From Macrostomum lignano (lineage: Eukaryota): 64,000 nucleotides of DNA. The stretch's first letter is position 1. Every line of letters begins with the position of its first letter. The DNA lies in the NCBI GenBank assembly GCA_002269645.1, contig NIVC01001431.1, forward strand, positions 1 through 64,000, in the 5' to 3' direction. Under the pieces are notes generated by a model. That model searched no databases. It worked only from the letters and a program-made list of their open reading frames with translations, and had not been told where the DNA came from. The position numbers were made by a program, and so were the translations under genes. Shown in pieces: positions 2,303 through 53,674 of the stretch.

Positions 2303-2561
2303 AGTGGCTGCGGGATCATAGTTCATCTTATGCTTAGGAGGTTCTTCGTCCTCTAAAATAAGTCTAGTACTACCCGCGTAATCCTCGTCCAATCAAAAAA
2401 ACTAAGCCTAGTACTAATCCCCTGCACTGCCATCATAGGCCTAGAAAAACGAAGAGAAAGAAGGAAAGGCGGATTCTTGCATATACATTCGATAATTGCG
2501 CGCATATATTGTGTGCAGAAAAAGCATAAACAGACAGAAAACAGAGAGCGGAGAGAACAAG

Positions 2562-5500: not shown

Positions 5501-7008
5501 ATAATCCCAAGACGTGGTGTGAATAAAGCTCGCCAGACATTCAGGACAATAGCGCCGGCGTTTAGCACGAGAACTCAACAGCCTATCCAGATTTAGCACC
5601 GCCATGTAGTGTCCATACTTGAATTCTGCGTAAGGTGGTATGAACAGACAATTGACTGGCGCAAGGTCACCAGTGGAACGACGAAAATTAAAAAACAGCA
5701 CGGCAGTATTCGTGGCATGACTCCAGACAAACACACGCATCAGTCTAATTCGAGGGTTCAGCCGGCAAAACTTTCTGTAGCTCCCAATTGAGTGACGAGT
5801 CACTCCGGCGCGCGTAAATCGAAAGCTTTTCAGCCAAGGCCTGTAAGACGCCTTTCGCCTTTTACGGGCTTGCCCTTCGACCTGTGAGGAAAAGACGCTC
5901 GACACGACAGCATACATAAAACAATCATGCTGATCTGCTCGGTGCGGGCGTAGAAACAAAACCGCTCCCGGCATACGACCAACAGCCAGTGGAACGCGGA
6001 ATGGAACGGAACGGGTCGGAGCGGATTCTGTTGGACCGCCGCCCGCCTGCGCGCCCGCCGCCGCCGCCGCCACGCCCGCCGCCACCACCACCGCCGCCCC
6101 GCCACCCGCTCCCCACACGTCCTGCTGCTGCTGCCGACGACTGCTAGTGTTCGACTGTAGTAGTAGATATTTTCGGCGGAATATGCACAGCATAACGTCG
6201 ACCTTGACAACGCCGAGGAACTTCCAGTTACTACCTCGGGACTGAAAGTTGTCTAATTTAGCTACCAGATCGTTTGTTGCCTCGCTGTACCATTGGTTGA
6301 AAACGTCCTCAGAGAGAAGAAGTACACGGCGGCCGGCGGCTGGAGCATTCGCATCGAAGGAGACCATAACGACTTTGGAATTGAAAAGGGCGCGATTACT
6401 TCTACCTCTTCGTTGTGGGGGGATTCACCAGCAGCCGTGTCATTGGCGGGGGGATAACGAGTACGATACATTTTTACATTAAGATGTATACATGTACGGA
6501 GTAAACAGTCCGCAGATCCGAGAGAGTTAAAAAGACGAAAAAGTGGAACTTGCAGTTGTGGAAGTAACTCGCTGGGTGGTTCGGTCTCGCCATCGTCCTC
6601 GTCCAGCAGAGGCGTGAACGTCAGAAAGTTCGCCCGACCTCGGTGTGCGGACTCGGTATGTTGTACCGACCAGCCTGGTGGAGTGTCCTCTTCGATTAGC
6701 CGACGCACTGGTTCTCGAAGTAAAAGTTGGTCTGGTTGATAGCACGAGCCATTGTGCGAGTGCCCATGGAGGGCGGCTTGACTGTTGAATCTCTGCCGGC
6801 ACACAGGGCATCTGATTTGTTTCGTCGTCGTCGTCGACGGCTGGAATGGTGTTGGCGATTGTTGGCGACGGGGTGGTTGTGATAATCGCCTAAATAGTTT
6901 GCTCGGTGGTAAAAATAAGGAAGGAATGCACAGCCTTAAGTTTGGTGGACAGTCCAAAAATGTCCTCCGCCGCGTGGTTAAACTGTATTTTACTTTGCAG
7001 AGATACAA
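2562..7008 (-). CDS. polB: Protein-primed family B DNA polymerase (N-terminal C2H2, endonuclease VII domain), two frameshifts (~5280, ~6300)
   Basis: YADIES (ExoI), CYVC...DHCHLSG.PRG.ACMSCN (EndoVII), YLDANSLY (motif A), KLLNNAVYGK (B), GGDTDS (C). The N-terminal ORFs hold LDNFQSRGSNW and CPVC..F....L.GH. The true start is uncertain. Confidence 0.93.
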
Positions 7009-7298
7009 TTATGTAGACAATTTGAATATTTAGGAATGAACAGCAGGCTAGTAAGTAGTAGGTCGTTGATGGTGGTTGAAAGAATAGAATCGTATAACTT
7101 AGTCAATGGTAGTGTTTTTAGGGGTCTGAATCAGTTCGAATGGATCATCATGATAAACAAAAATCGTTGGGTACGCATGGGAATTTTACCTTCAGGTAGT
7201 AGTGGTAGGTGGTGTTTTTTCAACTTGGTAGGGGCTCGGTTGAATTTAGGTGTTTATTACTACAGCAGAAAATCGTTGTTGTTAATATCAAGTGCATG

Positions 7299-8099
7299 TC
7301 AGAGCTCACGACGAATGATGCCGCCAACAAGATGGGCTAGATCGGTCGTAGATGTATCCGATCTGATTAGAATTTCGTGTACGTTCGAGTAGTCCTGGTA
7401 GTGTCGTGTAAACGCCTCGTCTAGCGATCGTAGATAGTCCAGGGAGATGCCAGTCTCCTCACCGCTGCGTCCGCGCTGCGCGATGCGTTGAATGGCCAAC
7501 TCCGGGTCAATGCGCAGGTAAATAAGCGTCGTGTTCGCGCCGGTAAAGGGTACCCCAGTCGCTTCGAGGACGTCTAGTTGGCGCTGAGCAATCGCCCATT
7601 CGGTGTCAGACAGCGAGCCTTGACGGTGTAGTACGTCTTGGAATGCTCGAGCCGACCCGAGGCAGCGGTCGAGGATAACCACCTTGTTGTTGGATTGTTG
7701 GTTAACCTCATTCCGGACCTGGGTGGTAACACAAGATTGGCAAAAGTAGCTATACCGTGCGTGTCTTTCGACATTGGTTGTACATGCAGTAGGAGCTATA
7801 CGAAAGGAATTGCTAGATACTATAGTACCACTTACTTTGCTGTCTCTGTCGAGCAAGTCGTGGGAGACGTGCTGTTGGAATGCGACGGCCGGAAGCTCGC
7901 CTCGATAGAATGACTGAAGCAGATTTACCGAGTCCGGGAGGAGCGGGTGTCGCGCGTACTGGTGAACAGGCTCGGGACCGAAGACGGCTTTGTCGGCCCA
8001 ACCCTCGAGGCGGGAGGTGAGAGCCAGTTCTCGAAGCAACGTCGACTTCCCGGCACCGATTACGCCCTCCAGGAGAAAAATGCGAGACTGGCTCGTCAT
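7299..8099 (-). CDS. Deoxynucleoside kinase (dNK/dGK family), in frame with the upstream TBP-like domain
   Basis: IFLLEGVIGAGKST P-loop, PEPV, NLLQSFY, AFQ, ILDRCLGS..F, IYLR.DPE....RI.QRGR.GE lid. Confidence 0.9.
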   Translation of the reverse strand: MTSQSRIFLLEGVIGAGKSTLLRELALTSRLEGWADKAVFGPEPVHQYARHPLLPDSVNLLQSFYRGELPAVAFQQHVSHDLLDRDSKVSGTIVSSNSFRIAPTACTTNVERHARYSYFCQSCVTTQVRNEVNQQSNNKVVILDRCLGSARAFQDVLHRQGSLSDTEWAIAQRQLDVLEATGVPFTGANTTLIYLRIDPELAIQRIAQRGRSGEETGISLDYLRSLDEAFTRHYQDYSNVHEILIRSDTSTTDLAHLVGGIIRREL

Positions 8100-8678
8100 A
8101 TTGGCTAGAATTGGAACAAATTCTGGTTTCGGAGCGGCTTCCTGACACAATTGTTTAACAATGTTGATCATTTCTAAAATCTGGCTAGTAGTCTTTGCAC
8201 CTATTATAACGATCTTAAGGGAATGAAAAATATTGCACACCGTCCTATTGAGTGGAGCAGTACTACGGAGGGTGATGGCTTGTGGGAATATCTCCGCGTC
8301 GTAATACAGCCGAGCTGTGTGAAACGGCCCGATAAAGTTTTTCAGGGTCGAAAATTTGAGTCCAGGATAGTGGAGCAGACCAACGGTTGTAGAGCTGATT
8401 ATACGAATCGATGTTTTGATTAGTTTAATTACTTTAAGGTGTATGAAATTCAGGGCACGTAGAAGTTGGACTCGGGATCTACAGCCATAAAGCGTGAGTA
8501 GTCCTCCGGGGTAGAACTGACATGAAAATTGGGGCAGTCCGATACGAAGCATACTTGGCTTGGCGGAGTATAATTTGGAGGGGATTCCCGCCTGGCCTAG
8601 ACGTTTTTTTAGCCTATTTAAATCTAACTTTTCTCCTGGAGGGGTACTCGTTCTGGCTTGCACTATTAGTAGGACCAA
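8100..8678 (-). CDS. Divergent TATA-binding-protein (TBP/TLF)-like domain
   Basis: Two TBP half-repeats: KLDLNRL...YSAKPSMLRI...CQFYPGGLLTLYGCRS and YDAEIFPQAITLR...CNIFHSLKIVIIGAKT..QI. These resemble the TBP consensus YEPELFPGLIYR...LIF.SGKIV.TGAK. Confidence 0.8.
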
Positions 8679-8820
8679 TCTCTGAAAAGAATAAATACGA
8701 GAAAAAATTCTGTATAACGGTTAAGATTTTTATATATTTCTGGGTGATGCGTTTCCGTTTACGGAGAATGGTAGTTAGAGTTATAGGTATAGCTTCCCGC
8801 CACCAAGTGAACGCTAACGG

Positions 8821-9912
8821 TCACTGTGCGAAGACTTCATCATCTTCGCTGTCCATGGGCTCCGTCGAGGCCCCCGAGTCCACGTCCCCTAGCGCTGGGT
8901 TGGAGGCTGCAGCTTTACCCGCTTTGGGGACAGTATTGGTAACACCGCTTACAAGATCTTTGACGGGAGTCACCGTGATCCAGTCTTCAGCTGCTGCTGC
9001 TGTTGTTGCTGCTCCAGTCGTCTTGGTGGGGCGTTTGGCGGGGCTGCGACGAGTTGGGCCTTGTCGTCGTTTTCGTCCGCTAACTGGTTTCACTAGCGTC
9101 GTCGTAGTTGTTGACTCTTCTTCCTCAGTTGCGGCGGTGGCGGCGATTGGAGTCGACGTAGTTGGGATGTGAAAACGCAAAGCTTGGGCTAGCATCGGCA
9201 GGTGTTTCGGGTCGTCGTCGACCAGTGTCAGCGAGCGAAGGGCGAGGCCGAGGCGCCATGTCTTGCTTTCCTTCTGACGATAAAGACTTGTGAGCTGAAC
9301 GGAGAGATGGTAAAGACCGCTAAGTCCTCTCAGCTCGCTTGTGTCAACTTCACGCGGGTGTTGATTAGGCAGTGCTCGAAAGGTGAAACATGGTAGTGTA
9401 GGTTTTATGGCAATCCACTGGGCAAAGCCCAGGTCGCCTTCCTCGGTGGCGCGGGAGATGCGAAGCAGCGGCATCGGATCGCCCATTTGCTTTAGTTTGA
9501 TAGCGATGCCTCTTTCGACTTGTCTAGCGAGAGCAAGGGGATTGAAGAGCAGTAAGAATTCATGGTCTAGTGAGTATGCACATGTAACAAGGATGGCGAA
9601 TTCTTAAACTTACTTGATGCATTGTAGGAATTTGCTGCAAAAGGCCGATGATGACAGTCCGATGGCCACCGCCTCACGGTCTCCGGCTAAAAACTCTCCG
9701 GCATCCTGTATTTGGATACCACGAAGAATCTCGACTGGGGTCGTGGTTTGAATCACTAGTGGGGACCTCCTGTCGACTTTGGGGGGCGTCCACGTTACGC
9801 TACGGAAGGTGCAGCTTGCTGTAGGAGCGTTGGGTTCGCCTAGGTGGAGATTACCAACGTCGGCTTGGATAGCACCCGGTTGGAATACGGATTCGGCAGC
9901 GAAACCAGCCAT
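8821..9912 (-). CDS. Putative OB-fold ssDNA-binding protein, two exons (9912-9614, 9523-8821), about 333 aa
   Basis: The two ORFs share one frame and are separated by a 90-nt GTAAGT...polypyrimidine-TAG intron with two in-frame TAA codons. Motifs PLVIQTT..V...GI, F...LQ.I.Q.E and VQLTSLY....WRLGL.L.SL plus an acidic DSEDDEVF tail resemble NCLDV/T7-gp2.5-type SSBs. Confidence 0.55.
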
Positions 9913-17594: not shown

Positions 17595-19778
17595 CTATTT
17601 AATTGGAGTTAAATTGAAAGAGCAGGAAGAGCAGCATAGAGCTAAAGCGCAGGTGTCCTCATTGGGAACACTAGACTCGATCGAGTTGCCTATACTAGCA
17701 CTACATGTATTGTTGATGCCAGTAGCGAGGGGGCCGCATAATAGAAACCCCAGCTTTGATGAGATGGCCACTGGGCCAGAGTCTCCACGCACTACCGTGT
17801 CACCCACGATTTGGTAATAGAAGTCTGAGCCTATTAGAATAGATATAGGCGTGTGCTGATCCCGAGGATCGTATGGATCCGCTAAATCTAGAGAGTGCAG
17901 GTGTTCGAACCCTGTCACTTTGACTGAATGTTGTGGTTGACATATTGTCTCGACGATATTTGTACGAATCTGGATCACTTCGAAAGAATCCATTTTGCGT
18001 AATGCGATGTTAGCACTACCAGACTGCAGAGCCGTGCTGTTTCCAGCAAACGACGAGACGTTAAGCCGTTCCAGTGAATTCGCCTGAATGCCCAGCAGGT
18101 CACAAATGTCCTGACGAATGTAGCTGCGATTACTGGCCGTGTCAAACAGAACACGCACCATCATTTCCCGGCGACCATCTGTGCTGAGCAAAATGGCTTT
18201 GGCAACGGGCAGAGCCACTGCCGGATTGTCAGAAATGAACATTGTGAAGGCAAAAGACTCTGTCACAGATGCTAAGCACTGATTCGGCGGCGAAGCTGGT
18301 TTCTTGGCGGACGTGGATGGCTTATCTGACTCCCTGCCTGCCTGTGAATTTTTAATGCAGATGCTGACATGGTGTCTACCTGAGCAGCCCCGACATGGTC
18401 TCGGATCTTTGCATTGAGGTGCCAAATGTCCCAGGCGCAAGCACCTAAAGCAGCGCTTCTCAGACGCAAGAAAGGCCCGTCTCTGATCAGCGGAAACGAG
18501 GTTGGTACAGGACTCAGACGAGTGTGAGCCTTTGCAGTAGGTGCAGAAGATCTTCGAAGAGGCCTGTTTGGACGCCTTCGGCTGAAGTGTCACCAGAGTC
18601 GAGACAGACGAATGCCGTGGAGAAGCTTTGCTACTGCTAGAGCCAGCAGGTGATGAGGACTTCGTCGACTCTTTCGAACTCAGGAACTGCCCTTGCCCAG
18701 CACTTTCGCGAACCGTAATTTCCTGCTTTAGCGATCGCAAGAGGCTCTCCAGTGAATTAATGTCCGATCCCTGCATTTGCGCGGCTCTCAGGAGCTCTAA
18801 CCGGAAGGCTGATGGGCACTTGCTCATCAGCGATGGAACCAAAAGTGACTCGTAAGAATTGGCAGAGACACCCTGAGCGTTCAGGCTACGCATGGCAGCA
18901 GAAATGTCATCGTGAAATTGCTGCAGAGAGCGCAGGGATGCATCAGACAGGCGAAGCTCCGAGATTTTATGCATTAACTCCTTGACAACCACCTCGGGTT
19001 TGCCAAAGCGCTCTTTTAGAATATCCACCGCAGTGGAATAGTTGTCAGCAGTGATAGCCAGGCCTCTAATGCATGACTTTGCCGCCTCAGATAGAGAGGC
19101 CACGAGATAATTAAACTTGTCAATTTCAGAAAGTGAGGTGTTTGAATTGATCGAGGAATCGAATTGATCCCAAAATGATTGCCATGTTGAAACCTGCCCA
19201 TCGAACGTGGGAACCTGCAGCTTAGGGAGCTTGACTTGAGGTTGCTGCGACTGAGTGGGAGGCGAACTCGCCTGAGATTTAAAATTACGAGAAAGAGCAG
19301 CTTCTAACCTTTTGATGCAAGTGAGACACTGCAGCCCATAGCGCTCACAATCATCGCGCTCCGACTCTAACTGCTCATCTGCAAGAGACTCGTCTATCGC
19401 ATCGTCCAGTTGCCTCAATATACTGAGCTTCGAATTGAACACCTCGAGATACGCAGCCGCCTCAGCGACTTCGACTTCTCTCTGCAAACCCCTGTCCAAC
19501 AGCACTTGCACTTTGCCGACCGCTTTAGTAACGCTAGACCGAATGCCTGCCCGTTTCCGGACAGCAGCTGCCAATTCATCTTCTGAGAGAACCATGATTG
19601 AGATGCGAACGACAACGAGAACACAGAGAAAACCGGCAGCGAGAATCCCGACTAAAGAACGTCTAAGCGACCAAACGGAGACAAAGGTGGAAAAGAGAGG
19701 ACAAGAGGGCAGGAGACAAACTACGAGTAGTATGCGAATAGAAAAAAGAACATCGAAAAAACAAGCACATAGAGTCAA
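17595..19778 (-). CDS. gag: BEL/Pao Gag-protease ORF
   Basis: VKLPKLQVPTFDG...W.SFWDQF (DUF1759-like), Cys/His knuckles CTYC..H, CFRC...GH...C and CRGC...HH..IC, and aspartic protease VLFDTASNRSYI. The ORF stops before RT. Confidence 0.92.
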   Translation of the reverse strand: MTLCACFFDVLFSIRILLVVCLLPSCPLFSTFVSVWSLRRSLVGILAAGFLCVLVVVRISIMVLSEDELAAAVRKRAGIRSSVTKAVGKVQVLLDRGLQREVEVAEAAAYLEVFNSKLSILRQLDDAIDESLADEQLESERDDCERYGLQCLTCIKRLEAALSRNFKSQASSPPTQSQQPQVKLPKLQVPTFDGQVSTWQSFWDQFDSSINSNTSLSEIDKFNYLVASLSEAAKSCIRGLAITADNYSTAVDILKERFGKPEVVVKELMHKISELRLSDASLRSLQQFHDDISAAMRSLNAQGVSANSYESLLVPSLMSKCPSAFRLELLRAAQMQGSDINSLESLLRSLKQEITVRESAGQGQFLSSKESTKSSSPAGSSSSKASPRHSSVSTLVTLQPKASKQASSKIFCTYCKGSHSSESCTNLVSADQRRAFLASEKRCFRCLRLGHLAPQCKDPRPCRGCSGRHHVSICIKNSQAGRESDKPSTSAKKPASPPNQCLASVTESFAFTMFISDNPAVALPVAKAILLSTDGRREMMVRVLFDTASNRSYIRQDICDLLGIQANSLERLNVSSFAGNSTALQSGSANIALRKMDSFEVIQIRTNIVETICQPQHSVKVTGFEHLHSLDLADPYDPRDQHTPISILIGSDFYYQIVGDTVVRGDSGPVAISSKLGFLLCGPLATGINNTCSASIGNSIESSVPNEDTCALALCCSSCSFNLTPIK

Positions 19779-20077
19779 TCTACCGCAAGCCGTGCAGAGT
19801 CAGAAGCCAGCAGCACCGGCTCGAATCTAGATGAGAGCCCCTGGTTCCAGAACGTCACGAAGTTGGCCCGTGCTATGATGTGAAATCAGGTGTGGTCGAG
19901 CGGAGACCGTGACCGCCACGGCAGAAGCCGGTTGAACCAGGAGCGAGCCACTGTCGAGTGCAGACGGCTAGAACAGCGAACTGCAGAGAATGTTGAGCTG
20001 GGCCGGAGTTGAGGTCGAGTTTGGCTAGTCGAACTGAGCTTCTAATGCTAGATTTTGAGCCAGGTTGAATTCTTCAA

Positions 20078-24951: not shown

Positions 24952-25870
24952 CTAAAAGATGCGCCATCCCCATCAAAATATTTCACAACAGCTACAGAGC
25001 TACGCCCCTTAGTGAGAAATGAGACGCGGTCTTTCAAATTACCGCGACTATTAAGCGACTCCCTCAATTTGAAATCGACAGCGTCGCTCGAAGCCGACTG
25101 GCTGCCGGGAATCGACGACCGCCGGCTGTCCAGAGTGGCCGGGTAGCCAACCGACGAGCCGGCGTCCCAGCGCCAGTCCAGCTCCCAGTCGCTGCTGTCG
25201 TCTCCGCTGTCTCCACCACCGTCGTAGCGACGCTGCCGATGCTGGGTTTTCCACTCGCTGCCGATGTCAATGCCGACATCCGAGGCGGTCAGCGAGGCGT
25301 GGACATGCCGCAGCAGCAGGCCGGACATGCCGGCGCCGATGCCGCTTCTCTTCGACATCGACGGCCGCCGGCGCCGCTGCCAAGTCCACGTCGTCGATCG
25401 ATCGTCGGGGACAGTGGATCCGCCGTCGCCGCTGAGCGCATCGGCCAAGTTGGCGTCGAGCTCCTGGTGCTTCACTTCGCTGGCTAGGCGGTCGCGCATG
25501 CCGCAGGCGAGCCGGTCTCTGCGGTCCTCAGACTGGTCCGAGTCGAAGCTGAACACCGAGGATGAGGCGGCGAAGTCCTCGTCGGCAAAACTTGGCGCCC
25601 TGGCCAGCAGTTCGGGACGGATCTTCACGATTAGGACGCAGATGTTGCCGCTGGAGCCGTGCGACTGTGTTTGAGTGGAAGAAGGCAGTTATGTCTGAGG
25701 ATTTTGGTCACAGATTGAGCAGATGTCAAAGTAATCTCCTGGATAGCTGGATCAGCAGGACGCTGCAGTCAGTTTTCTTAGAAAAGAGACTGAGGTCGGT
25801 GGGGTAGTGTGCTCTTCTTGAGAAGTCCGATATTTTCTCGACCGAATTAGTCTATGGCAAAACCTGCTGA

Positions 25871-27171
25871 ACTACTATGTGCACAATTATCCGGGCGTTT
25901 TGGAGGTGGGGTGGGTGTCAACCCACCCTGCCTCTCATTGGCTGGCGCTCGGCGCGCGCGCGCCGCAGGCGCGTGGCGCCAAGCGCCATCCAGGCGCGCG
26001 GCGTCAATCAGGCGCCAATTAGGCGCCCATGCCGCAGGCGCACCCTCCCGATATGTACACCCTCCCGATATGTATGCCCACCCTCCCGATATGTATGCCG
26101 CAGGCGCACCCTCCCGATATGTACCCCGATATGTACACCCTGCCGATATGTATGCAGCAGGCGCCCATGCCGCAGGCGCCCCAAGCCGCAGGCACCCCGA
26201 GTGTACACTCTCCCATGCCGCAGGCACCCCGAGTGTACACTCTCCTCAGTACACTCTCTGATGTACACTCTCCCCAGTACACTCTCCCGATATGTAGTCA
26301 ATGATATTAGGCTAGCGAAAACTACTTATAGTAGGTGAAATTGCGTATATTTACATAAAAAAGTAGATAAAACATATTGGTAAGTGTGAATAATGACGCA
26401 TATAGGTGTACAGAATTATCCAAAAAACATACAATGTAGGTGCATATTATCGATATATTGACAGAAATAGACAAAATACAAAGCAGGTACTGTAGGTGCT
26501 AATAAACATAGGTGGAAATACACACAGTATAATGCACACACTCTAGATTCAAATTATGTAGGTGCATAGGCTAAAATACACACACTGCAAGTTAAGTATA
26601 ATGCAGGAAAATTTAATACATAGCATATAATGTAGGCGCATTTTAAACAATACATTTTCCATATTAACCCGCAGGTACAAATTTCAGTGCATAGGCTAAA
26701 ATACACACACTGCAAATTGAGTATAATGCAGGAAAATTGTGACATATACAACATATGTATGCAAAATTAAGCGTATAATGTAGGTGCAAAGTAAAATACA
26801 AGCAACCGGCTCCATAGTAAAGAGACACGCCCCCAGAGCCAGGGCCGGGGGGTCCCAAGTACAGTGCGGACAGAGAGGAGTAACATAGAGAAATTCCTCC
26901 CCAAGCCTCAAATAGGGTTTTTTCAAGGGGATCCCAAGTACAGTTCAGGCAGAGAGCATTCCAATCCTCCCCAAATGGGGGTTATCAAGGACCCCTCACA
27001 TTGCACAGTGGAGGTAGAGTAACAGACCGCATACAAAGAGAATTCCAGTCAAACTTTACAGCACCTCCCACCCCAAATGAGGGTTTTAGTGGATCCCCAG
27101 AGGGTAGCTCTCCAAGTTGAGGGATCCCCCAGTGTGTTGCGAGGTCCAAGTACAGTGCAGGCAGAGAGTAA
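25871..27171 (+). repeat. Left TIR (~1.3 kb)
   Basis: Reverse complement of ~33481-34889; contains GC-rich CCTCCCGATATGT/GCAGGCGCCCATGCC modules and an AT-rich block. Confidence 0.92.
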
Positions 27172-27342
27172 TAGAGACCGCCCCCATGTACAGTGTGCTC
27201 CCGGGTGTCAAATGATGAAGGACCCAGCCTCAATGTTCAGGAGGTGTCAAATGATCCCGCCAGAATGCACAGTTGGGGTGAGTTTAGAACATAGGGGAAT
27301 CCCAGGCAGAGAGGTGTAAAAAGACAGATCCTTATCTCTCAC

Positions 27343-30300
27343 TCACTCACGAAAGCCATACGGTCGGCTGGCGGCCCCATACACCCTCTTAGTCATCACG
27401 CGCTGGAAAGTCTTGTCCATCTCGAGGGTCCTTATTGTGCAGCTGGCCTTATCGCGCCTGAACTGGGCCTGGGGCAGCCGTACAGTCCCGCCGTGGCGCA
27501 GAATCTGCTGCAGTTCATCCTCGCGCTCCGCAATCTCGGGCGTGACTCTGATGCCCTTACACTTGAGCACCGAGTACAGCGACCCGTCAGGCTTCTCCAC
27601 CACGTACCGGTAGAGTTTGGGGCCTCCCGTGGTGAACTGTACCATGCGGCAGCCTGCAGGTACTTCGTCAGTCCACTGCCCCAAACTCGAACCGCCCGGA
27701 GGCTCGTACTCGCCCGGAGAGCAGCGGTATACGACCCTGTGAGGAGGTGGAGGAGGATATAGTTTTAGGGGGAGAAAGAGAGACAGAGACAGTTGAAAAA
27801 ATTACTTACGAATCGGTATCGGCGTAAATGACGCGGGTTCCTAGACCCTCCAGAGCCTCGTAGAGTCGCAGCCGGGCATGGGAGGTGGTGAAAACGCCAA
27901 TAGGCACATTGGCGTACTTAAATGCGCGCTCGCTAGCGGCACCAAATCGGGGCTTGTACTCGAGCATCATGAAGCTCTCCCCGATTGGCTCGCACGACTT
28001 GACCTTGATGGACGGGTCCGTCAGGCGCTGCAGCCACGCCTCGTAGCTGTCCACAATCTCTGTGGAGGTCAGGTCGTCGCGCTGGCAGAATTTGCCCAGA
28101 GCCTGCAGGGAAAAAATAAATTTTTGTATATCTGGCTACTGTAAGTAGAAAAACACGGTCCCCCACTGCAAGTAGAAAAACCCCAACTTACGAGTTTAGA
28201 AAAATCTTGGCAACAAAGCGCAGGCCAGGATTTTCTTCCACCTTTTCCAGCCGGACGCCTTCGCGGTCGAAAAAGCTGGCCATGTAGGCAGCCTTGGCGT
28301 CCTCAGTCATCCCCGGTGAACCGCTAGACTCGGCTTTGAGCTTTAAAAAGGTGTTTACATAGTCTGCAAACAGCCCGGTCCGAGTCTCGGTCCAATAGGC
28401 CAGGGCATGAACTGACTGCAGCTTGTAACCCAACTGCAGGGCCTTGTGGAGCTCTGGGGTCGCCCACGTGCCGCGGAGCATTCTCTCAGCGTCAGTGTGT
28501 GTACACTCGCTGCTGCACTGTTTCTCCATGCAGACGCGGCAGAGGCCGAAAACCAGCTTCTTGTTAATCTTGGCGGGCAGTAGCGGGATGTGGAGATTGG
28601 TTGGCGGCAGAATCGATACCTCGGCGATGCCAAAATACCCAGCCAGCTGCTGTTCATCCATTAGATGAGGTTCGGGGTGGTAAACCGGGTGCCCGACGGG
28701 GTACTTGTCAAACTTGTTGACAGTCGGGTAGAGCGACACCTAGGGGGGATAAGTAGGCTAAACTCAAACGCATGTCAACTGTGTGTGTGTGTACAAGTGT
28801 ACAAAATTACCACATCCCGATAGCGCAGCTCCACAGTCTCAGTGGCCTCGGCGTGCGGGACAAAAGCCTCGGTGCGACCGCCGAACAGGGCATCCTCCAG
28901 GCGAATAGGCTGCTGGACTGGCGCTCCCTCGTCCTGATAGTCGTGCTCCCACATGACACGTACATTGTAGGCAGTGGAGAGCAGGCGAGTGAAGCGCTCA
29001 GTCTCTTCATAAATTTCCCGCATTGGCTGGTTCTTGAGCGGGTGCAGCACGTCGCCGTTGGGGAAGCACTTGGGACACCCGTGATAGAAGCACCCGTGAA
29101 ACTGCAGCACCGTCCTACTCTCCGGGTCGAAACCGTCCACCTTACGGCCCATGGCGAAAGCCTCGCCGCCAGAATCGGCTGTCCTCAACCGGCCGCCAAA
29201 CTCGGTTGCATTCAAATGTGCCAGCCAACACCGCGCCTTGTGCGACTGTACATCTGATCGGCGAGAAATCACCCCAAGAGTGTTGGGCTCCATAAACTTG
29301 GAGGTGAATACCGACATAGCCAAGCCCGAAAGTGTTGGATTGGACAAATGCGTCCAGTCCGCAAATGTCCTTAATCAGGCGGGTGTATTTAAGGCAGCCT
29401 TCCCGCAAAATTAGCGTGTCCTGCAGACAATAGTCCAGATACTCCTTATTAAAATTAAACACTTTGCCCTCCTGCTTGGCCAACCAGTCCGCGATGGAGT
29501 CGTGCTGCTTATTCTTCTTCCCGCCGTACATTTCAATTGAACAGTAAGGCCCCACGTAGCCCCAGTTTTGCGGCTGGTTAAACACGTGCGGGAAATCTCC
29601 TTTGGTCAGTTGGGTGCCCAAACCAAGCGCCTTTGGGAATTGCGCCAGACCAATAGGGATGAAGTTGAGGCTGTCCTTGAAGGTGATCTTGTCACACTTC
29701 ATGTACATTAGGCGGCTGTTCTGGAAGATCACCTGAGGCTTCTTCTTGGCCAGTCCGTTGAGTAGGGCGCCGAGCAGGAGGAATGCGTCATACGCAGAGC
29801 CGTTGTGTGCTATAGCAATAGCGCCCTGCTTGAACACGCTAGTCAACCAGCAGTAAAATGCATCAAGAGAGTGCGGCCCGACTGATACAAACTCTCGCAT
29901 CCCGCAGGCACAGTCGCTGTGGGACACACAGCTCGTGAAATCGCGAGCCAAATCGCGTCCCGCAATGCAATTGGCTAAGCTGTGTAGTCCCCCGCACGCG
30001 CCGCAGCGGGGCCTGGGGAAGAGTTTGGGACACGCCTCGCAGGAGGTAGCTGCCGTAACCAAGTGTACCCGGTGCTGCTTTCCCGAGTCCACGTACGTCT
30101 CAAAATCATAGTAAACGTACGGGGCGCTATACTCTTTGGCTTTGGGCGGGGTGACAAAGCACTCGTGGGTGGCAGTTTCGTCGTACTGCTTGCAGACTGG
30201 GCACTTGGCGTGCGTGACCGCACTGGTGTTCTGGGGCTTGGCCTACTTTCAGTTCTTCTAGATAGCCACACGTGCCGCAAACGTGGACTGAATCACAGCG

Positions 30301-32542
30301 AGATCTGCCCGCCTTATTCTTGCGCTTGTGATTCTCTAGGCACTGAGCATTATAGCAATTTAGCCCGCAATCCTGGCATCTTACATATGCTCGGTTAGCC
30401 CTGCAGTTGGAGCCCGGAGTCTTGCAGGTGCTACACGCATCCGCACACTTGTGCTTGGCGGGGTCGCTATCATAGGCCATCTCGCACTTCGCGCAGTAGC
30501 AGAGGCTGCCGAAAAACGCAGGCAGCTTGGTGATCACGTTGAAGTGCTGCTCAACCAGGTGCAGGTGCAGAATCTCGGTGCCAGGCAGGTTGAAGATGCA
30601 CCGGTTGGCCTCCTCTGCCCGGTACACGCGTACACCAAAGTTGTGGCCAGGATGCAGCCGGTTCAGGGCACAGATCGCTTCGGGCAGTGCATCCAGCCCG
30701 AAAGGACCGGCCTGCGAGACGATTTGATGAGTCTGTGTGGGGGGTAAAATATTTCTTTTAGTATTCCTTATCGAAAAATTTCTCATCAGAGTATGGTTCT
30801 TTTAGTATTCCATGATACTGTGCAAAAAAATCTTATCAGAAAATATATCTTTTAGTATTCCATGATACTGTGTAAAAATTATTTTAGTATTCCCTGGTAC
30901 TATGTAAGATTTCTTATCAGAAAATATATCTTTTAGTATTCCATAATACTGTGTATAAATTCTTTTAGTAATCTATGAAAATAGCAGAAAATATATCTTT
31001 TAGTATTCCATGATACAGTGGAAAATTAGTGCACAACTTACCGTGTAGAGGCCTGCTTTGACTTGCAGCTCAGTCGCCAGCTTAGTCTGCTTGGGCGAAT
31101 TGGCCTTGATCCTGCGCCACACATCCTCGGTGATGCGCTTGGCCACAAATTGCAGGTAGGCGCAGGCCACGACCAGAGCACGCAGCAGGCACCTCTTGTA
31201 CGTGTTGTTGATGCGGACATAGTGCTTGGAGAAGGCGTGCCTCTCTTCTAGATGCTTGTTCTCGAGGGCACAGCCACCTCGAGGTACCCAGGCCTTTAGC
31301 AGACGGATAGAAAAGTTGCCCGTCAGTACAGTGGCATCCGACTGCACAATCTTGTTGATGTGCTTAAACAACAATTCAGCCGTCATGCGGGATGCACGCA
31401 CCGGGGGAGTATGGGCCGCTTTGAGCATATTGTCGCTCTCGAATTTCGCAGCCATGAAATCCTCGCCGGCTAAATCTTGCTTAAAGACATCGAGCATACT
31501 AGCGAATGTCTCGCGTAAATCTTCGGTGTCATCTAACTTCACAACATATTCAACACCCTTTGCCCTAAACTTGGGCAGGTCACGCTGATTATCTAGCCGG
31601 GCCGTGAAACCTGCATGGAATGAGTAGGGGGTGTGAGTCAGCCAGGGTCTGTCTGGGGATTGGGGGGGCTGGATAACTCACCCGGTCCGGTAACAGATTC
31701 CGGCTGTGTTGGCGGGACAAACGCGTCTGAAAAAACACAAGGAGATAAAAAAACAGAAGAATCTGTCATTTTCCTGACCCCAGCGTGTTTCCCAACCCCA
31801 GCCCTCAGTCGCAGCAATTTCTAATCAGAGTCTTTGTTTACTCTGCCGTCCCCGCAGCAACTCTCTGTCGCAGCAATTTCTTATCTGCACCCCCGCTGCA
31901 GCCTGTCACACTACCCCAGTCTTTGTTTACTCTGCTGCCCCTCTCCCACAGACCCTGCAGCTGTTGCTGCTGTCTAGCCCTCCCCAGCAACTCTCTGTCT
32001 GTTTTTGCAGCAATTTCTTATCTGTACCCCAGCTGCAGCCTGTCTGGGTAGCGCCCTATCCGCACCAATTTCTTATCAGTCTGTCCCCGCGCTACACACA
32101 CCCCGCAACTCTCTGCCACCGCCCTGTTGAAACTTGTCTAGCCCCACCCCAGTAGTTTTTTTTGCTACAGACCCTGCCGCAGTACCCCACCCTAGCAACT
32201 CCAGTCTAGACCCCTGCAGCTGTCGCACCACCCCTGCCCGCGGTCCCAGTCTTTGTTTACTCTGCTGCTCCACAGCAACTCTCTGTCGCAGCAATTTCTT
32301 ATCTGCACCCCAGCTGCAGCCTGTCTGGACAGCACCCTATCTGCAGCCCCAGTCTGTCCCCGCACACCCAGCTGAAGCGCTAAACCCCTGCAGCTGTCGC
32401 AGCAGCTCACCCCCCTGCCGCAGTACCCCACCCTAGCAACTCTAGTCTAGACTAGACAGCCAGAAATTAATTAAAACTTACCATAAAGACGTTGCCTCTT
32501 GTCAGCCAGGAAAGCAGTTGCTGCGGCGCTGCGTTTAGCCAT
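27343..32542 (-). CDS. polB: Spliced protein-primed PolB with a Vsr-like insert, about 1,275 aa when repaired; exons 32542-32482, 31726-31682, 31610-31042, 30732(or 30711)-28811, 28739-28192, 28102-27810, 27736-27343
   Basis: YYDFET (ExoI), AHNGSAYD (ExoII), YCLQDT (ExoIII), FHGCFYHGCPKC (Vsr-like). Splicing restores RDV|VSLYP, LNS|LWGK and YADTDS|VVY. All introns are GT..AG with matching phases. Three indels remain (+4 at ~30210, +1 at ~29345, -1 at ~28095). The first two exons are less certain than the 3' ones. Confidence 0.88.
31780..32460. repeat. Patchwork repeats in the predicted first pPolB intron
   Basis: Recurring GCAGCAATTTCTTATCTG.ACCCC.GCTGCAGCCTGTC and CCAGTCTTTGTTTACTCTG modules. 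Confidence 0.75.
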
Positions 32543-32781: not shown

Positions 32782-33267
32782 ATGTCTTCTATCTCTCTAT
32801 ACGAAAACTTTGTGGCGCGGATGCCCACATTTGAAACTGAACACAACTTGATTGAAATTCGGCGTCTCTACACAGACGAGGCTGGAGTGTGGAAGGACGG
32901 CTTCCCTGCAATCTACTTGAGCGAGCGAGAGTGGGAGAAGCTCGAAGCTGCGCGGCCTGACCTGGAGGCCGCTGCCCGCCTTCACGTGAACAAGCGGGTC
33001 CTGTTGGGCAATTTCAAGGCAGTTGAAGCTTCGCGAGGGAGGATCCGTTTGCGGCGCAATTGGCTCAACGTGGACCCAAAGTTTAATTGGCGCTACACGA
33101 TCGAATTCACGCCTGATCTGTGGCGCCGGATGTTTGCCTCCCGTTTGGACAAGCTCTTCAAGCTGGAGCCCGAGGCCAAGAGAGCCAAGACAGAGGACAA
33201 TCTGCAGGACTGCCTTGACAGCATCAAACCCTACCCTTGGGGAAATCTGTTTGACGAGGGTTGCTAA
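32782..33267 (+). CDS. Tandem PC4/Sub1-like ssDNA-binding protein (161 aa)
   Basis: Intact ORF. F....LIEIRRLYTDEAGVWKDGFPAIYLSEREWEKL aligns by eye to the PC4 motif IDIREYW.D..GE.KPG.KGISL...QW..L, and a weaker second repeat follows (IRLRRNW...YTIEFTPDLWRRM). Confidence 0.7.
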   Translation: MSSISLYENFVARMPTFETEHNLIEIRRLYTDEAGVWKDGFPAIYLSEREWEKLEAARPDLEAAARLHVNKRVLLGNFKAVEASRGRIRLRRNWLNVDPKFNWRYTIEFTPDLWRRMFASRLDKLFKLEPEAKRAKTEDNLQDCLDSIKPYPWGNLFDEGC

Positions 33268-33480
33268 TTGAGGCATGCCGCATCCGTACAGCGCGAACCC
33301 GATTTTGGTAAGCTTAATCTCATATAAATTGCATATAAATTAGATATAATCTGTCTATATTGAACACTAAAATATTGTTTACTTTGACAGATGTTTCGAG
33401 AGCGCTGATGAGGAGGAGACTGCCCTGGCTGAAGATCGAGCTCGAGTTTGACTGATAAGGGAATTTCTGTTTGTACTCTG

Positions 33481-34889
33481 TTACTCTCTGCATGCACTGT
33501 ACTTGGGCCTCGCAATACACTGGGGATCCCTCAACTTGGAGAGCTACCCTCTGGGGATCCACTAAAACCCTCATTTGGGGTGGGAGGTGCTGTAAAGTTT
33601 GACTGGAATTCTCTTTGTATGCGGTCTGTTACTCTACCTCCACTGTGCAATGTGAGGGGTCCTTGATAACCCCCATTTGGGGAGGATTGGAATGCTCTCT
33701 GCCTGAACTGTACTTGGGATCCCCTTGAAAAAAACCCTATTTGAGGCTTGGGGAGGAATTTCTCTATGTTACTCCTCTCTGTCCGCACTGTACTTGGGAC
33801 CCCCCGGCCCTGGCTCTGGGGGCGTGTCTCTTTACTATGGAGCCGGTTGCTTGTATTTTACTTTGCACCTACATTATACGCTTAATTTTGCATACATATG
33901 TTGTATATGTCACAATTTTCCTGCATTATACTCAATTTGCAGTGTGTGTATTTTAGCCTATGCACTGAAATTTGTACCTGCGGGTTAATATGGAAAATGT
34001 ATTGTTTAAAATGCGCCTACATTATATGCTATGTATTATAATTTTCCTGCATTATACTCAATTTGCAGTGTGTGTATTTTACCCTATGCACCTACATAAT
34101 TTGAATCTAGAGTGTGTGTAATATACTGTGTGTATTTCCACCTATGTTTTATCAGCGCCTACAGTACCCGCTTTGTCTATTTCTGTCAATATATCGATAA
34201 TATGCGCCTACATTGTGTGTTTTTTGCTGCTCAGCTCCAATATGTACATTTTAATATGCATTATGCGTCATTATTCACACCTACCAATATGTTTTATCTA
34301 CTTTTTTATGCAAATATACGCAATTTCACCTACTATAAGTAGTTTTCACTAGCCTAATATCGCTGACTACATATCTGTGTATGCATACATATCGGGAGAG
34401 TGTACTGGGGAGAGTGTACACTCGGGTGTCTGCGGCGTGGGAGAGTGTACACTCGGGGCGCCTGCGGCTTGGGAGAGTGGGGCGCCTGCGGCATGGGCGC
34501 CTGCTGTTCTGGAGGGTGGGCATACATATCGGGAGGGTGCGCCTGCGGCATGGGCGCCTGCTGCTCTGGAGGGTGGGCATACATATCGGGAGGGTGCGCC
34601 TGCGGCATGGGCGCCTGCTGCTCTGGAGGGTGGGCATACATATCGGGGTACTTATCGGGAGGGTGGGCATACATATCGGGAGGGTGCGCCTGCGGCATGG
34701 GCGCCTGCTGCTCTGGAGGGTGGGCATACATATCGGGGTACATATCGGGAGGGTGGGCATACATATCGGGAGGGTGCGCCTGCGGCATGGGCGCCTGATT
34801 GGCGCCGCGCGCGCCAGCCAATGAGAGGCGAGGAGGGTTGACACCCACCCCACCTCCAAAAACGCCCGGATAATGGGGCCCTTAGTAGT
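33481..34889 (-). repeat. Right TIR (~1.4 kb)
   Basis: Inverted copy of the left TIR with a different number of internal modules. Confidence 0.92.
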
Positions 34890-35031
34890 TGCTGATCCCT
34901 GAGCACGCGCCCGGGTGAGTTGCGCATGCAGGCACACGCTCACACAGGGTGAACACAAGGACCACTCAGGTAGATCGGGGACTCCGTTTCTTGGAAAACT
35001 TTAGGAAACAGATTTTCCGAAATTGTACATT

Positions 35032-36959: not shown

Positions 36960-38792
36960 CTAGGTCGCCTTAAGGCGGGCAGGCGCCTGACGGAGCCAGT
37001 CGGCAATGGCTGTTTTAACTATATTTGATTCGCACTTGCCCGACTTGCTACCCTGGGCTACCAGTCGCCTAACCAAGGAAATTGTGTTAGCAAAATCCTT
37101 GAAGGCAGCCTTTCCACCTCTTTTGCCTTCGTAATTAAAAGACGCAGCCAATTGCGTAGTGATAAACTTTGGCATTAACATAAAAACGGCTTTGCGCTGA
37201 GAATCAGAAACCATGCAGCCGATATAGGAGGCCAGCATGGTTGATTGTTTAGGAATCCTTAAGTACTGTTCCAGCTGATCCAATTCGTCCTTTGTGCTTA
37301 CTGGCAGCACAAAGGGCAAATTTAGCTTTGCAAGCTGGGGCATTTGACGACTAGCCGCCAGTTGTTTTAGCAGCTGGTTATTTTCCTTCGCTAAAGAAAA
37401 TGTGGAGCAAACTAAACGCATTAAAGTCGTCTCGTCATCTCCCGTGTAACGAAAGTTTTCCTCTGCGCAAAATTGCGACAAAAAACTTGTACCCAATGGA
37501 GCAGCATTATCCGCCCGTCGCGATGGGCTTGGAGTCAAATGACTGTCCAGTGGGCCTGGTCCAATGGTGTCGTCATCATCACTGGTGTATTCAAGCGAGC
37601 AGCCAGCTGCCGATTGTACCGGTGTAGCAGGACTGAATGGATGAGGTTAAAGAGCATGACAATTAAGCTTTCAAAAGCGAATATTTTAGTGGTTTGGATT
37701 ATACATTGAAATCACCCAGGCCCGCACTTACACCGACCGACCAGAGAAATTCATGCTAGCGGCTGTTTCTTGTCGTTGAACCGAGCTGCAGGCGCTTGCA
37801 GACCGTCCAGCTGCTGAGTGATTTGAGCTAGCGACGCTAGCACTAGCAGCAGATGCTTGCTTCTGTCGTTGAACAGAGTTGTAGGCGCTTGCAGACCGTC
37901 CAGCTGCTGAGTGATTTGAGCTAGCGACGCTAGCACTAGCAGCAGATGCTTGCTTCTGTCGTTGAACCGAGTTGTAGGCGCTTGCAGACCGTCCAGCTGC
38001 TGAGTGATTTGAGCTAGCGACGCTAGCACTAGCAGTAGATGCTTGCTTCTGTCGTTGAACCGAGTTGCAGGCGCTTGCAGACTGTCCAACTGCTGAGTGA
38101 TTTGAGCTAGCGAAGCTAGCAGCAGATGCTTGCTTCTGTCGTTGAACCGAGTTGTAGGCGCTTGCAGACTGTCCAGCTGTTGATGGATTTGAGCTAGCGA
38201 CGCTAGCAGCAGACGTCTCGTCATCTTGTCGATGCGAACTGGCACTGGCAGAACAACCATGGAGCGAAAATAGCGAGCCAATATCACCAACGTCCTCTTG
38301 CTGCAGCATATCAGTTTCGGATTCAGTCTCCGAATCGGATTTAGACTTCGACGACTCGTCATCACTTGATACATATTTATTCTTCTTACGCTTTTTCTGT
38401 GTTGGTTCCATATCGATAAGTCGATGAACTGGTTTTCTTTGCCTAGGTGCTTCTGAGTCAGTAGTCTCCAGACCAGGTGTATCCTCGCCCGCAGCAGCAG
38501 CAGCTTCTAGCTTCTTTAGCTTTTCGCGTGCTTTTCGTTCAGTTGATGCCATACCTAAGACTCTAATAGAGCATGAACGCCATAGTGGCTCAAGTGTAGC
38601 TGTAGGCTTTTCCATTTTTGAACGTAAAGAGGCGACTCGACTAGTTGATTGCGAAGTGGGGTAGGCAACACTGTCCGAAGCTAATAGCCAAATCGATGGT
38701 ACATAATCAACTGACTTGTCCTCCAGAAACTCGACTATTGTGAAAGCCTGGTTGCTCGAATGCATCTGAAAGTGGTGTAATAAGAGTAACAA
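36960..38792 (-). CDS. EnSpm accessory ORF2 (DUF4806-like C-terminus), probably two exons
   Basis: N-terminal FTIVEFLEDKSVDYVPSIWL, ~93-bp tandem repeats, and C-terminal LPVSTKDELDQLEQYL...FNYEGKRGGKAAF...IADWLRQAP. A probable short intron lies at ~37630-37735. Confidence 0.7.
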
Positions 38793-50744: not shown

Positions 50745-51740
50745 GGTCTGTTAGACAGGGAATCATCGGTTAGACAGGGAATAACCGGTTAGACAGGGAA
50801 TCACCGGTTAGACAGGGAATCACCGGTTAGACAGGGAATCACCGGTTTAAAACATGGAATCACCAGTTTTAACAGGGAATCACCGGTTAGATAGGGAATT
50901 ACCGGTTGGATAGGGAATTACCGGTTAGATAGGGAATTACCGGTTAGATAGGGAATCACCGGTTAGACAGGGAATCACCGGTTTAAAACATGGAATCACC
51001 AGTTTTAACAGGGAATCACCGGTTAGATAGGGAATTACCGGTTGGATAGGGAATTACCGGTTAGATAGGGAATTACCGGTTAGATAGGGAATCACCGGTT
51101 AGACAGGGAATTACCGGTTAGACAGGGAATCACCGGTTAGACGGGGAATCACCGGTTTAAAACATGGAATCACCAGTTTTAACAGGGAATCACCGGTTAG
51201 ATAGGGAATTACCGGTTAGATAGGGAATTACCGGTTAGATAGGGAATTACCGGTTAGATAGGGAATTACCGGTTCGATAGGGAATTACCGGTTCGATAGG
51301 GAATCACCGGTTAGACAGGGAATTACCGGTTAGATAGGGAATTACCGGTTAGATAGGGAATTACCGGTTAGATAGGGAATCACCGGTTAGACAGGGAATC
51401 ACTGGTTAGACAGGGAATCACCGGTTAGACAGGGAATCACCGGTTAGACAGAGAATCACCGGTTAGACAGAGAATCACCGGTTAGACAGGGAATCACCGG
51501 TTAGACAGGGAATCACCGGTTAGACAGAGAATCACCGGTTGGACAGGAAATCACCGGTTAGACAGTGAATCACCGGTTTAAAACATGGAATCAGTGGTTA
51601 GACAGGGAATCACCGGTTAGACAGGGAATCACCGGTTAGACAGGGAATCACCGGTTAGACAGGGAATCACCGGTTTCAAACAGGGAATCACCGGTTAGAC
51701 AGGGAATCACCGGTTTCAAACAGGGAATCACCGGTTAGAC
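50745..51740. repeat. 19-bp minisatellite (GGGAATCACCGGTTAGACA)n
   Basis: About 50 tandem copies. Confidence 0.96.
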
Positions 51741-52229
51741 ACAGGTCCAGCCCCAGGTTCCCACCTCACGGAAGCCAGGTCCTGCATAGACATTCCCATC
51801 TGCTGGTTGCAGGAGAGATCCAAGAAGCTGAGCCTGGATTCCATCAGATTGCGCACAGATCCGCTCAGTGTTGAGTTGCAGCCAACGTCAAGAGTTCGCA
51901 TTCTGGGCGAGTCGCTGAGGTCCGGTAGTTGCTGCAGGCAGTTGGAGTGAGCCCTGATCGTAACCAGGCGTTCAAGACGAGACAAAGTCGATGGCAGCGT
52001 CTTCAGCTGGTTGCCGGATATGTTCAATTCGCGAAGCTCGCAAAACTGAAGCATTGTTCTGGATGATGGGGTACGTTTGAATGCTTTTATTCTGTGGCAA
52101 ATACATGCACTGTGAGCGAAGTTAATCAAACATACTGGCAAGAACAAAGAACAGAACTTGCTTTGAATGCTTCTTTTTATGAGACATTGCGCGCTCAAAG
52201 TTCATCGGGGCAATTCTTTTTAACACCCT

Positions 52230-52885
52230 TCTAATTCCCATCAAGTAACATTATAATTTCCCTCAAACATCAGTCTTATTCCCCTCAAATACTATTTTAA
52301 TTCCACTCAAACTCCATTCTAATTCCTCTCAACACCAATTTTAAGTCACCTCACATACAATTCTTATTCTCCTCAAGTACCAGTTTAATTCCCTTCAAAT
52401 ACCATTCCAATTGCCTTCAAATACCATTCTAATTCCCCTCAAACAACATTCTAATTCCCTTCAAATACCATTCTAATTCCCCTCAAACAACATTCTAATT
52501 CCCTTTAAATACCATTCTAATTCCCCTCAAACAAAAGTCTAATTCCCCTCAAATACCATTCTAATTCCCCTCAAACAAAATTCTAGTTCCCCTCAAATAC
52601 CATTCTAATTCCCCTCAAACAACATTCTAATTCCCTTCAAATACCATTCTAATTCCCCTCAAACAACATTCTAATTCCCTTTAAATACCATTCTAATTCC
52701 CCTCAAACAAAATTCTAATTCCCCTCAAATACCATTCTAATTCCCCTCAAATACCATTATAATTCTCCTCAAACAGCATTCTAATTCCCCTCAAATTACC
52801 ATTCTAATTGCCCTCAAACACGATTCTCATTCTCCCTCAAACAGCAATATAATCCCCCTCAAATCCCATTCTAATTCCCCTCAAA
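52230..52885. repeat. 22-bp minisatellite (ATTCTAATTCCCCTCAAATACC)n
   Basis: Tandem copies, more degenerate at the left. Confidence 0.92.
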
Positions 52886-53674
52886 CACAATTCGAATCCC
52901 GCGACACACAATGTACTCAAAAGAAGCCCAGACTCACTCGTCGCTAATCTCCGTGAGCCGGTTAAACGCTAGCAGCAGAGTCCGCAGGCTGCTCCCAAAG
53001 TTCTCCGCAAGGAAGCTGACATCTGCATCGCTTAATTGGTTGAACGAAGCCGTCAAGACTTGAAGTCGATTGCCGGAATTCCTAAGCGGCAGTTTTGGCA
53101 ACTCAACGAGCTGGTTGTTGGCTAAATTCAACTCAACTAGAGCTGGCGTCAGGTGGAAAAGAGCCGCTGGTAGCCTAGTTAACTGGTTGCTATCGAGACA
53201 GAGCTCTAGCAGCTCAGTCAGACCGTTGGCAGCCTCGGCTGGCGCAGCTGGCAGCTCGGCTATCCGGTTTCGCTCCAGACGGAGGCTCTGCAACTTGGCG
53301 CAGCGCCAGATGTCGGCTGGCAGTCGGCGAATTTCATTGCCGCCGGCGTGCAGTCGGAGGAGGCTGGCTCGGCCAGACGGCCACAAACAGCCGGGCAGGC
53401 TGTCAAGGCGGTTGTCACTGACGTCGAGGCATTCGAGACGCTTCGGTGGCGGCGATATTTTTAGGCTTTGCAGCTCTGCGTTGGCGGGGATCGAGACATT
53501 GGCTTGGAGAGGTTCTTTGGAAATTGTCGATCAGCTTTGGGCAAATCCAGTTTCTCTCTAGTGACCTTGAGGAAAGACAGTCTGTTTAGTGACCTTGAGG
53601 TTAGCGAACCCCTTTCCAGTGACCTTAATGAAGGCAGTATCTCTTTAGTGACTTTGATATGAATAAAAGCCTAT

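Follow-up and report, generated by a model that had tools for sequence, protein, structure and literature searches.

The first 64,000 nucleotides of contig NIVC01001431.1 of Macrostomum lignano (assembly GCA_002269645.1, positions 1 to 64,000 of the forward strand) form the window analysed here, and on its minus strand, from 32542 to 27343, it carries a gene for a family B protein-primed DNA polymerase (pPolB) in seven exons. The gene raises the question of how a polymerase that is cut by six introns, three of them at the catalytic motifs A, B and C, and that lies in an integrated element with no integrase of its own, is expressed and moved. Polintons are defined by polymerase and integrase together, and they are central to ideas on the origins of adenoviruses, bidnaviruses, linear plasmids and giant viruses. 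Our results favour, with a probability of about three in four, the reading that the polymerase element and a separate capsid/integrase element of about 10 kb make up a bipartite Polinton, which exists as two sister systems and is accompanied by palindromic defective passengers.

A spliced polymerase gene

Six introns had been placed in this gene by an earlier sequence-only reading of the window. All of them begin with GT and end with AG where they had been drawn, and each is spliced out in RNA-like runs. The evidence consists of joints in Logan contigs from four runs of four studies, whose RNA type is the tool's guess, no run being recorded as RNA. All six predicted junctions are used in these contigs, and the last three cut the motifs as had been described (DV|VSLYP, LNS|LWGK and DTDS|V). 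The exons and introns, all on the minus strand, are the following.

32482..32542, minus: pPolB exon 1, from the ATG
31727..32481, minus: intron 1, 755 nt, repeat-rich; joint in three of four runs
31682..31726, minus: pPolB exon 2, 45 nt
31611..31681, minus: intron 2, 71 nt; joint in one of four runs; present in eight of eight sister copies
31042..31610, minus: pPolB exon 3, predicted terminal-protein/OTU region (by motif)
30733..31041, minus: intron 3, 309 nt, enlarged by tandem repeats (sister-family counterpart about 61 nt); joint in three of four runs
28811..30732, minus: pPolB exon 4, with a Cys-rich region, exonuclease and VSR-like insert (by motif); two frame breaks in the window copy
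28740..28810, minus: intron 4, 71 nt, phase 0, in motif A (DV|VSLYP); joint in three of four runs
28192..28739, minus: pPolB exon 5, motif A to motif B, PF03175
28103..28191, minus: intron 5, 89 nt, phase 2, in motif B (LNS|LWGK); joint in four of four runs
27810..28102, minus: pPolB exon 6, motif B to motif C; frame of the window copy broken near the exon start
27737..27809, minus: intron 6, 73 nt, phase 2, in motif C (DTDS|V); joint in four of four runs
27343..27736, minus: pPolB exon 7, downstream of motif C to the stop

At intron 2, loose ends were also found in two more runs, one of them matching exon 3. A single contig of 1,729 nt from a fifth RNA-like run covers exons 4 to 7 with introns 4 to 6 spliced out. 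Three larger DNA-like runs showed none of the six joints among the 15 of 22 joints listed, and their contigs extend into the introns. The alternative acceptor at 30712 that had been proposed for intron 3 was absent among the joints listed in the four RNA-like runs.

The six introns are retained in all 30 genomic copies compared (the 30 best), with a donor GT in every copy for introns 2 to 6 and in 26 of 30 for intron 1, and an acceptor AG in every copy except at intron 2 (29 of 30). Each exon is under purifying selection, with a ratio of nonsynonymous to synonymous polymorphism (pN/pS) of 0.04-0.18. A prediction artefact or pseudogene debris is ruled out by the spliced joints, the conservation in 30 copies and this selection. 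Retro-processed intronless copies were considered as a source of the joints, and none occurs among the 30 genomic copies. The family frame, with exon 1 taken from the window copy and the other exons at their commonest lengths among the copies, is 61+45+569+1920+548+294+394 nt, or 1,276 codons. The phase compatibility claimed for the introns holds for the family, in which 11 of 30 copies have exons 2 to 7 without stops and keep the frame, but not for the window copy, in which the frame is interrupted close to 30.2 kb, 29.3 kb and 28.09 kb. These breaks had been overlooked, and owing to them L-W-G-K is out of frame in the window copy. Several percent of sites differ between the transcripts and the window copy, so other copies are their source and expression of the window copy itself is not implied.

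PF03175 was matched in two exons, and exons 4 to 7 all align to full-length homologs; the alignment of exon 3 is weak (E 0.07). The labels VSR, OTU, terminal protein, PZ and adenain are putative and in part assigned from motifs. A terminal protein and a vOTU domain at the pPolB N-terminus are the layout given in PMC11161782, for which exons 3 and 4 hold candidate motifs, and a VSR domain is reported in marine pPolB2 (10.1101/2023.08.22.554363). The nearest proteins, at 95-98% identity, are labelled Macrostomum lignano, and gene models of this species already include spliced pieces of the polymerase, which are otherwise undescribed. A genome search with exon 5 gave 45 full matches at 92% identity or more and 26 at about 70%, counts in which haplotype duplicates are possible.

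The polymerase element and its sister family

The element around pPolB, referred to as segment 1, is 9,019 bp long, with inverted repeats of 1.3-1.4 kb, ACTACTA ends and a 6-bp target duplication.

25865..25870, no strand: left 6-bp target-site duplication, identical to the 6-mer at 34890-34895
25871..27176, plus: left terminal inverted repeat, starting ACTACTA, 84% to the right arm over 1,434 columns; its first approximately 32 nt are the end common to the capsid/integrase partner
32782..33267, plus: divergent PC4-like gene, 161 aa
33308..33390, plus: seventh GT-AG intron of the element, 83 nt, 3' of the PC4-like open reading frame (ORF); skipped in three of four runs, GT..AG after a one-nt shift
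33476..34889, minus: right terminal inverted repeat, starting ACTACTA
34890..34895, no strand: right 6-bp target-site duplication

Besides pPolB, the PC4-like ORF is the only gene of the element, and some copies have one extra low-complexity ORF; family scans of the window ORFs found no integrase, capsid, protease or ATPase gene in it. The PC4-like ORF matches PF02229 weakly, below the cut-off (E 0.016; Atlas 0.88, PC4 clusters), and to judge from its sequence it likely encodes a single-stranded-DNA-binding protein. A PC4-like homolog about 31% identical to that of the window adjoins the integrase in a complete, AGTAG-ended Polinton family (L160-L177, G000).

Both ends were found in 8 of 10 other copies fetched of this family (family A), 9.0-9.5 kb apart and each with a 6-bp duplication, and the inverted repeats of its copies are often near-identical, up to 100%. 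Family B is the sister group at about 70%, with elements of 9.5-10.4 kb, ACTACGTA ends and 6-bp duplications in five of eight copies. Terminal inverted repeats of the polymerase elements measure 0.9-1.4 kb. Exon by exon, family B is about 50-73% identical to family A, and its introns lie at matching places (intron 2 in 8/8 copies, intron 3 in 7/8, introns 4 and 5 in 8/8, and intron 6 in 6/8 by pattern). The intron 1 acceptor is present in 8/8 copies; exon 1 was not found in family B. Open frames of 867 aa in family B were considered as intron loss, which was rejected because they contain an in-frame 81-nt intron.

A probable capsid and integrase partner

A 6-bp duplication needs an integrase and the polymerase element has none, so its ACTAC ends were followed to find other elements. 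Searches with these ends gave 242 and 133 matches, from which 20 and 19 end-bounded elements were fetched, mostly those not known to hold the polymerase. An rve integrase was present in 2 of the 19, and one of these two, an element of 8.3 kb flanked by a 6-bp duplication, has the appearance of a Maverick virion module (segment 2). The integrase of segment 2 matches rve at E 2e-9. The fold predicted for the large ORF of the 8.3-kb element, with a predicted local distance difference score (pLDDT) of 87, was related by Foldseek to the double-jelly-roll capsids of PBCV-1 and virophages at E 2e-17, and a profile match to the PF21738 capsid was also obtained. From the single sequence the capsid fold reached pLDDT 31, and no solved structure was matched by sequence.

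With 100 of 508 candidates scored, the genome search for this capsid gave at least 16 full matches at 98-100% and at least 15 at 87-88%. The gene set is alike in ten fetched copies and consists of the integrase, a minor capsid-like protein, a small basic protein, the major capsid, an Ulp1/adenain-like protease and an ATPase, together with four upstream ORFs, one of them TBP-like. Genes with a Fic domain (E 7e-14) and with similarity to TBP (E 1e-4) were noted in the family-A partner (L218:4037-4840, L218:6376-6909). Both ends were resolved in six of the ten copies, 9.8-10.5 kb apart and all with 6-bp duplications, and the terminal inverted repeats measure 0.4-0.67 kb. The 88% group has ACTACTA ends (57 matches) and the 99% group has ACTACGTA ends; between the sister systems the partner proteins are 50-88% identical and gene order is preserved. 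No polymerase match occurred in any of the ten partner regions, one of which ends at a contig end, and no helicase family was found among the scanned partner ORFs. Capsid proteins 78-80% identical to that of the partner lie on short contigs of other public assemblies (P0084-P0086), so the system likely reaches related hosts.

Two probable segments of one Polinton

The two element types are separate in the genome. Among 98 polymerase and 62 capsid places, three contigs are in common, with a minimum distance of 47.7 kb, and four oversize end pairs of 14-18 kb have one module or none inside. Their ends are shared: of seven distinct ends found on partners, three have a perfect 32-nt match among the 18 ends of polymerase elements, and the rest differ at one to four sites. 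Positions 8-27 of the end vary between copies, with the same variants on both element types; beyond nt 32 the family-A repeats of the two types are unrelated. The presence of the same 32-nt alleles of such a variable end on elements of both types indicates ongoing exchange, and such shared variants would be the expected trace of joint replication with end exchange. The variable positions 8-27 change in recombining blocks, flanked by the fixed first 7-8 nt and a fixed T run.

Related virion modules are known from metagenomes. In the 80 of 181 loci retained for comparison, 22 contigs reach 6.5 kb or more, and 15 of these also carry pPolB; the other seven are unbounded fragments. The separation of polymerase and capsid is therefore derived. 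The first 100 listed ends of family A form 31 facing pairs less than 50 kb apart, of which 25, counted by hand, span 8.1-9.9 kb, coding or not; this would be in keeping with a packaging limit. The polymerase element works like the replication module of a Polinton; alone it falls outside that group, and with its partner it is a complete gene set. Complementary gene sets, separate molecules and common termini, as in segmented viruses, can be read from the sequences of the two elements. The polymerase element is thus better regarded as the likely half of a split Polinton than as a plasmid-like oddity. The nuclear transcription and spliceosomal splicing proposed in the sequence-only reading are supported by the joints.

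Under the bipartite reading, host Pol II and the spliceosome would express segment 1, and its pPolB, with its own terminal protein as primer and the PC4-like protein, would copy any linear DNA with ACTAC ends. The integrase of segment 2 would insert each piece independently, and its capsid would package pieces of 8-11 kb singly, so that the segments would complement each other in trans and travel in particles. Joint replication would let the pieces swap ends, the palindromes would be copy-back defective genomes, and the introns would be old passengers of nuclear life, lodged in the most constrained codons and serving as no switch.

Several points weigh against this reading. The calls of minor capsid, protease and ATPase come from weak Pfam matches, motifs and gene order. 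In the family-A polymerase element, nt 28-50 agree with the partner of family B and not with that of family A; the pairing is therefore not strictly one-to-one, and all four elements could form a common pool. Broken copies are frequent in both segments, a complete parent could be missing from the assembly, and the capsid search scored 100 of 508 candidates. The types of the runs, RNA or DNA, are guesses of the tool. Free linear DNA, particles, protein and activity in trans are predictions for a system known here from sequences and from segment 1 transcripts.

Two other accounts of the pair were weighed. The polymerase element could be an independent, capsid-less replicon that borrows the integrase of any Polinton, with the capsid element a separate parasite and the shared ends due to ancestry or to convergent use of one enzyme. 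At least four complete resident Polinton families with rve integrases could serve as lenders, and autonomous replication modules have been proposed (10.64898/2026.10.13.758929). However, the resident complete families end in AGTAG and not ACTAC, identical alleles of the variable 32-nt end occur on both element types, and the capsid element would be left with no replicase of its own, which makes this account decidedly unlikely. We consider it very unlikely that both element types are non-autonomous deletion derivatives of a single complete Polinton that still mobilises them and that escaped assembly or scoring. Butterfly Polintons that lack polB remain mobile beside complete relatives (10.1101/2025.02.07.637071), and the limited number of capsid candidates scored, 100 of 508, leaves room for such a parent. 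Against it, no polymerase and capsid matches lie within 47 kb of each other, the oversize end pairs of 14-18 kb hold one module or none, both halves are constrained (pN/pS 0.04-0.18 for the polymerase; partner proteins 50-88% identical with gene order kept), and the split is present in both sister systems.

If the bipartite reading is right, the stable division into polymerase-only and capsid-integrase-only elements, found in both sister systems, would show concretely how modules can be swapped and how capsid-less or segmented descendants can arise. A wider interpretation, which we offer tentatively, is that of an animal DNA virus with a double-jelly-roll capsid and a segmented genome. Its replication and virion modules would be co-replicating genomes that are packaged separately and integrate separately, its fully spliceosomal polymerase gene would carry introns that recur at the catalytic motifs, and palindromic defective genomes would be packaged as well. 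Packaging by animal Polintons would be shown if both pieces and the palindromes of about 9 kb occurred in protected flatworm particles. Pipelines that require polymerase and integrase together, or long ORFs, would overlook such split systems.

Introns at the catalytic motifs

The position of the introns is not random. The chance that six uniformly placed introns strike the windows of motifs A, B and C is P 2-10 x 10^-5, with windows picked after the fact, and P is about 2 x 10^-3 by hand arithmetic when any of seven catalytic motifs is allowed. In this intron-rich polymerase, a viral gene has gained introns with strong positional bias. Long host-like evolution had been offered as one explanation, and it agrees with the matching places of introns 2 to 6 in family B, whose exons are about 50-73% identical, and with the low pN/pS. 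The six introns have no common sequence, nothing beyond 12-16 nt matches between two repeat-rich introns; an origin from introners was rejected because the introns are unrelated to one another.

The motif-B site is also broken outside Macrostomum. Among 30 non-Macrostomum homolog clusters, some of whose intact members may be spliced models, 16 break directly after the motif-B asparagine, the same position as intron 5, and several of them have a pyrimidine-rich insert of about 25 codons followed by SFWGKF, as would be expected of an intron in the same serine codon. No break at motif A or C was seen in these 30. In a tree built from the motif A-B segment with 30 rows, from which five homologs lacking the segment were excluded, the flatworm families group in a clade of their own (99/98) and the motif-B break requires three changes or more, so this site has been gained repeatedly or lost repeatedly. 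A protein search with exon 6 returned nearly only models of the same species. In unnamed pPolB2 genes of marine type (P0013-P0034, P0104, P0109), the motif-B serine seems to contain an intron that prokaryotic gene calling overlooked.

Homing-type nuclease domains are built into Polinton polymerases. The motif introns could shield the gene from nucleases of this type that cut conserved polymerase motifs, or be relics of them, an explanation that concerns intron position only and is compatible with the bipartite reading. An EndoVII domain in resident intronless pPolBs and the VSR-like stretch (called by motif) in the spliced pPolB speak for it, as does the same motif-B serine broken in 16 of 30 outside homologs with at least three gains or losses. 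We nevertheless hold it unlikely, because nuclease cleavage would be conjecture, the six introns share only matches of 12-16 nt, and plain retention bias in constrained codons explains the positions equally well. Judged by position, both constrained-codon retention and shielding from polymerase-borne nucleases would fit, and a regulatory switch is unsupported. The suggestion of the sequence-only reading that splicing acts as a switch of polymerase activity, which would silence the enzyme outside a particular tissue or state, receives hardly any credence from us: the non-random positions and one contig extending into intron 4 in one run, the sole hint of retention, are in its favour, but spliced joints occur in every run (motifs B and C in four of four, A in three of four, contigs giving no levels), the alternative acceptor is absent among the joints listed, and any retained intron would stop the protein, so that a switch requires no motif placement.

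Comparison with known systems

The two-element system has in common with Polintons/Mavericks (adintoviruses) of the pPolB2/Beta type the pPolB, an rve integrase with a chromodomain-like end, a double-jelly-roll capsid, a minor capsid, a protease and an ATPase, as well as long inverted repeats and 6-bp duplications. The order integrase, minor capsid, small gene, major capsid and protease in the partner is that of the second module of vertebrate Mavericks (PMC8097293). In contrast to Polintons, the genes are divided between two separately integrating elements: the window element has the 6-bp duplication and inverted repeats of the Polinton type, and integrase and virion genes are found only on the partner. 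The ends here are 5'-ACTAC, whereas those of vertebrate Mavericks are (AGT)2 or (AG)3, and pPolB has six spliced introns, whereas intact vertebrate Mavericks are described in the available text as intronless (PMC8097293).

Bidnaviruses likewise have two segments with matching termini and the polymerase on one (PMC8502044), but they carry a parvovirus NS1 helicase and a single-jelly-roll capsid (10.1101/2024.03.25.586562), where the present system has a double-jelly-roll capsid, an integrase and integrated pieces. The polB-less Polintons of butterflies resemble the partner as virion/integrase elements mobile without polB; they differ in having complete close relatives and transposable-element cargo, and a polymerase-only partner is not described in the available text (10.1101/2025.02.07.637071). 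Transpovirons, linear plasmids and the proposed autonomous modules (10.64898/2026.10.13.758929) are, like segment 1, repeat-bounded capsid-less replicons, but in the examples of that paper, as far as its available text goes, pPolB is consistently accompanied by a DDE integrase, while the polymerase element here lacks an integrase, is spliced and is matched by a capsid element. The introner-filled Polinton-like viruses of dinoflagellates also contain spliceosomal introns; those are mostly recent post-integration transposon insertions (10.1101/2025.03.18.643946), whereas the introns here are unrelated, fixed in all copies and conserved across families. The literature searched, with subscription papers, Repbase and supplements outside its scope, contained neither a bipartite Polinton nor a comparable spliced Polinton polymerase, nor any study of Polintons in Macrostomum.

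Other elements in the genome and the window

Most of the fetched ACTAC-ended elements are non-coding giant palindromes, 13 of 20 in family A, with lengths of 6.7-9.4 kb. Whole-element palindromes of about 7-10 kb, non-coding and with the same ends and 6-bp duplications, resemble copy-back defective genomes (L051-L065, L180-L197, G000). They were considered as coding segments, which was rejected because their ORFs contain no families. Some ACTAC-ended shells have a Gypsy, mariner, LINE or P-element interior and retain the 6-bp duplications (L060, L068, L186, L196). The genome also holds four complete, intronless Polinton families, and the ends read for them begin AGTAG; as helpers they were rejected because these ends differ from ACTAC. 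A genome search for the A32 ATPase family had no matches although such genes exist, and this is a weak negative. Viral-contig scans gave no matches for one polymerase or for the capsid alignment and two distant matches in another scan, and one metagenome scan gave no matches.

Elsewhere in the window, positions 826-9603 are part of another intronless Polinton-like element, with an ATPase-like match at 826-1023, a 909-aa pPolB frame with an EndoVII domain at 2562-5291, and a frame with TBP-like and deoxynucleoside kinase domains at 7299-8720. A BEL/Pao-type DUF1759 frame lies at 17595-19799, a DUF4806 frame at 36960-37646 and leucine-rich-repeat exons at 51728-53530, and tandem arrays are numerous between 21 and 64 kb.

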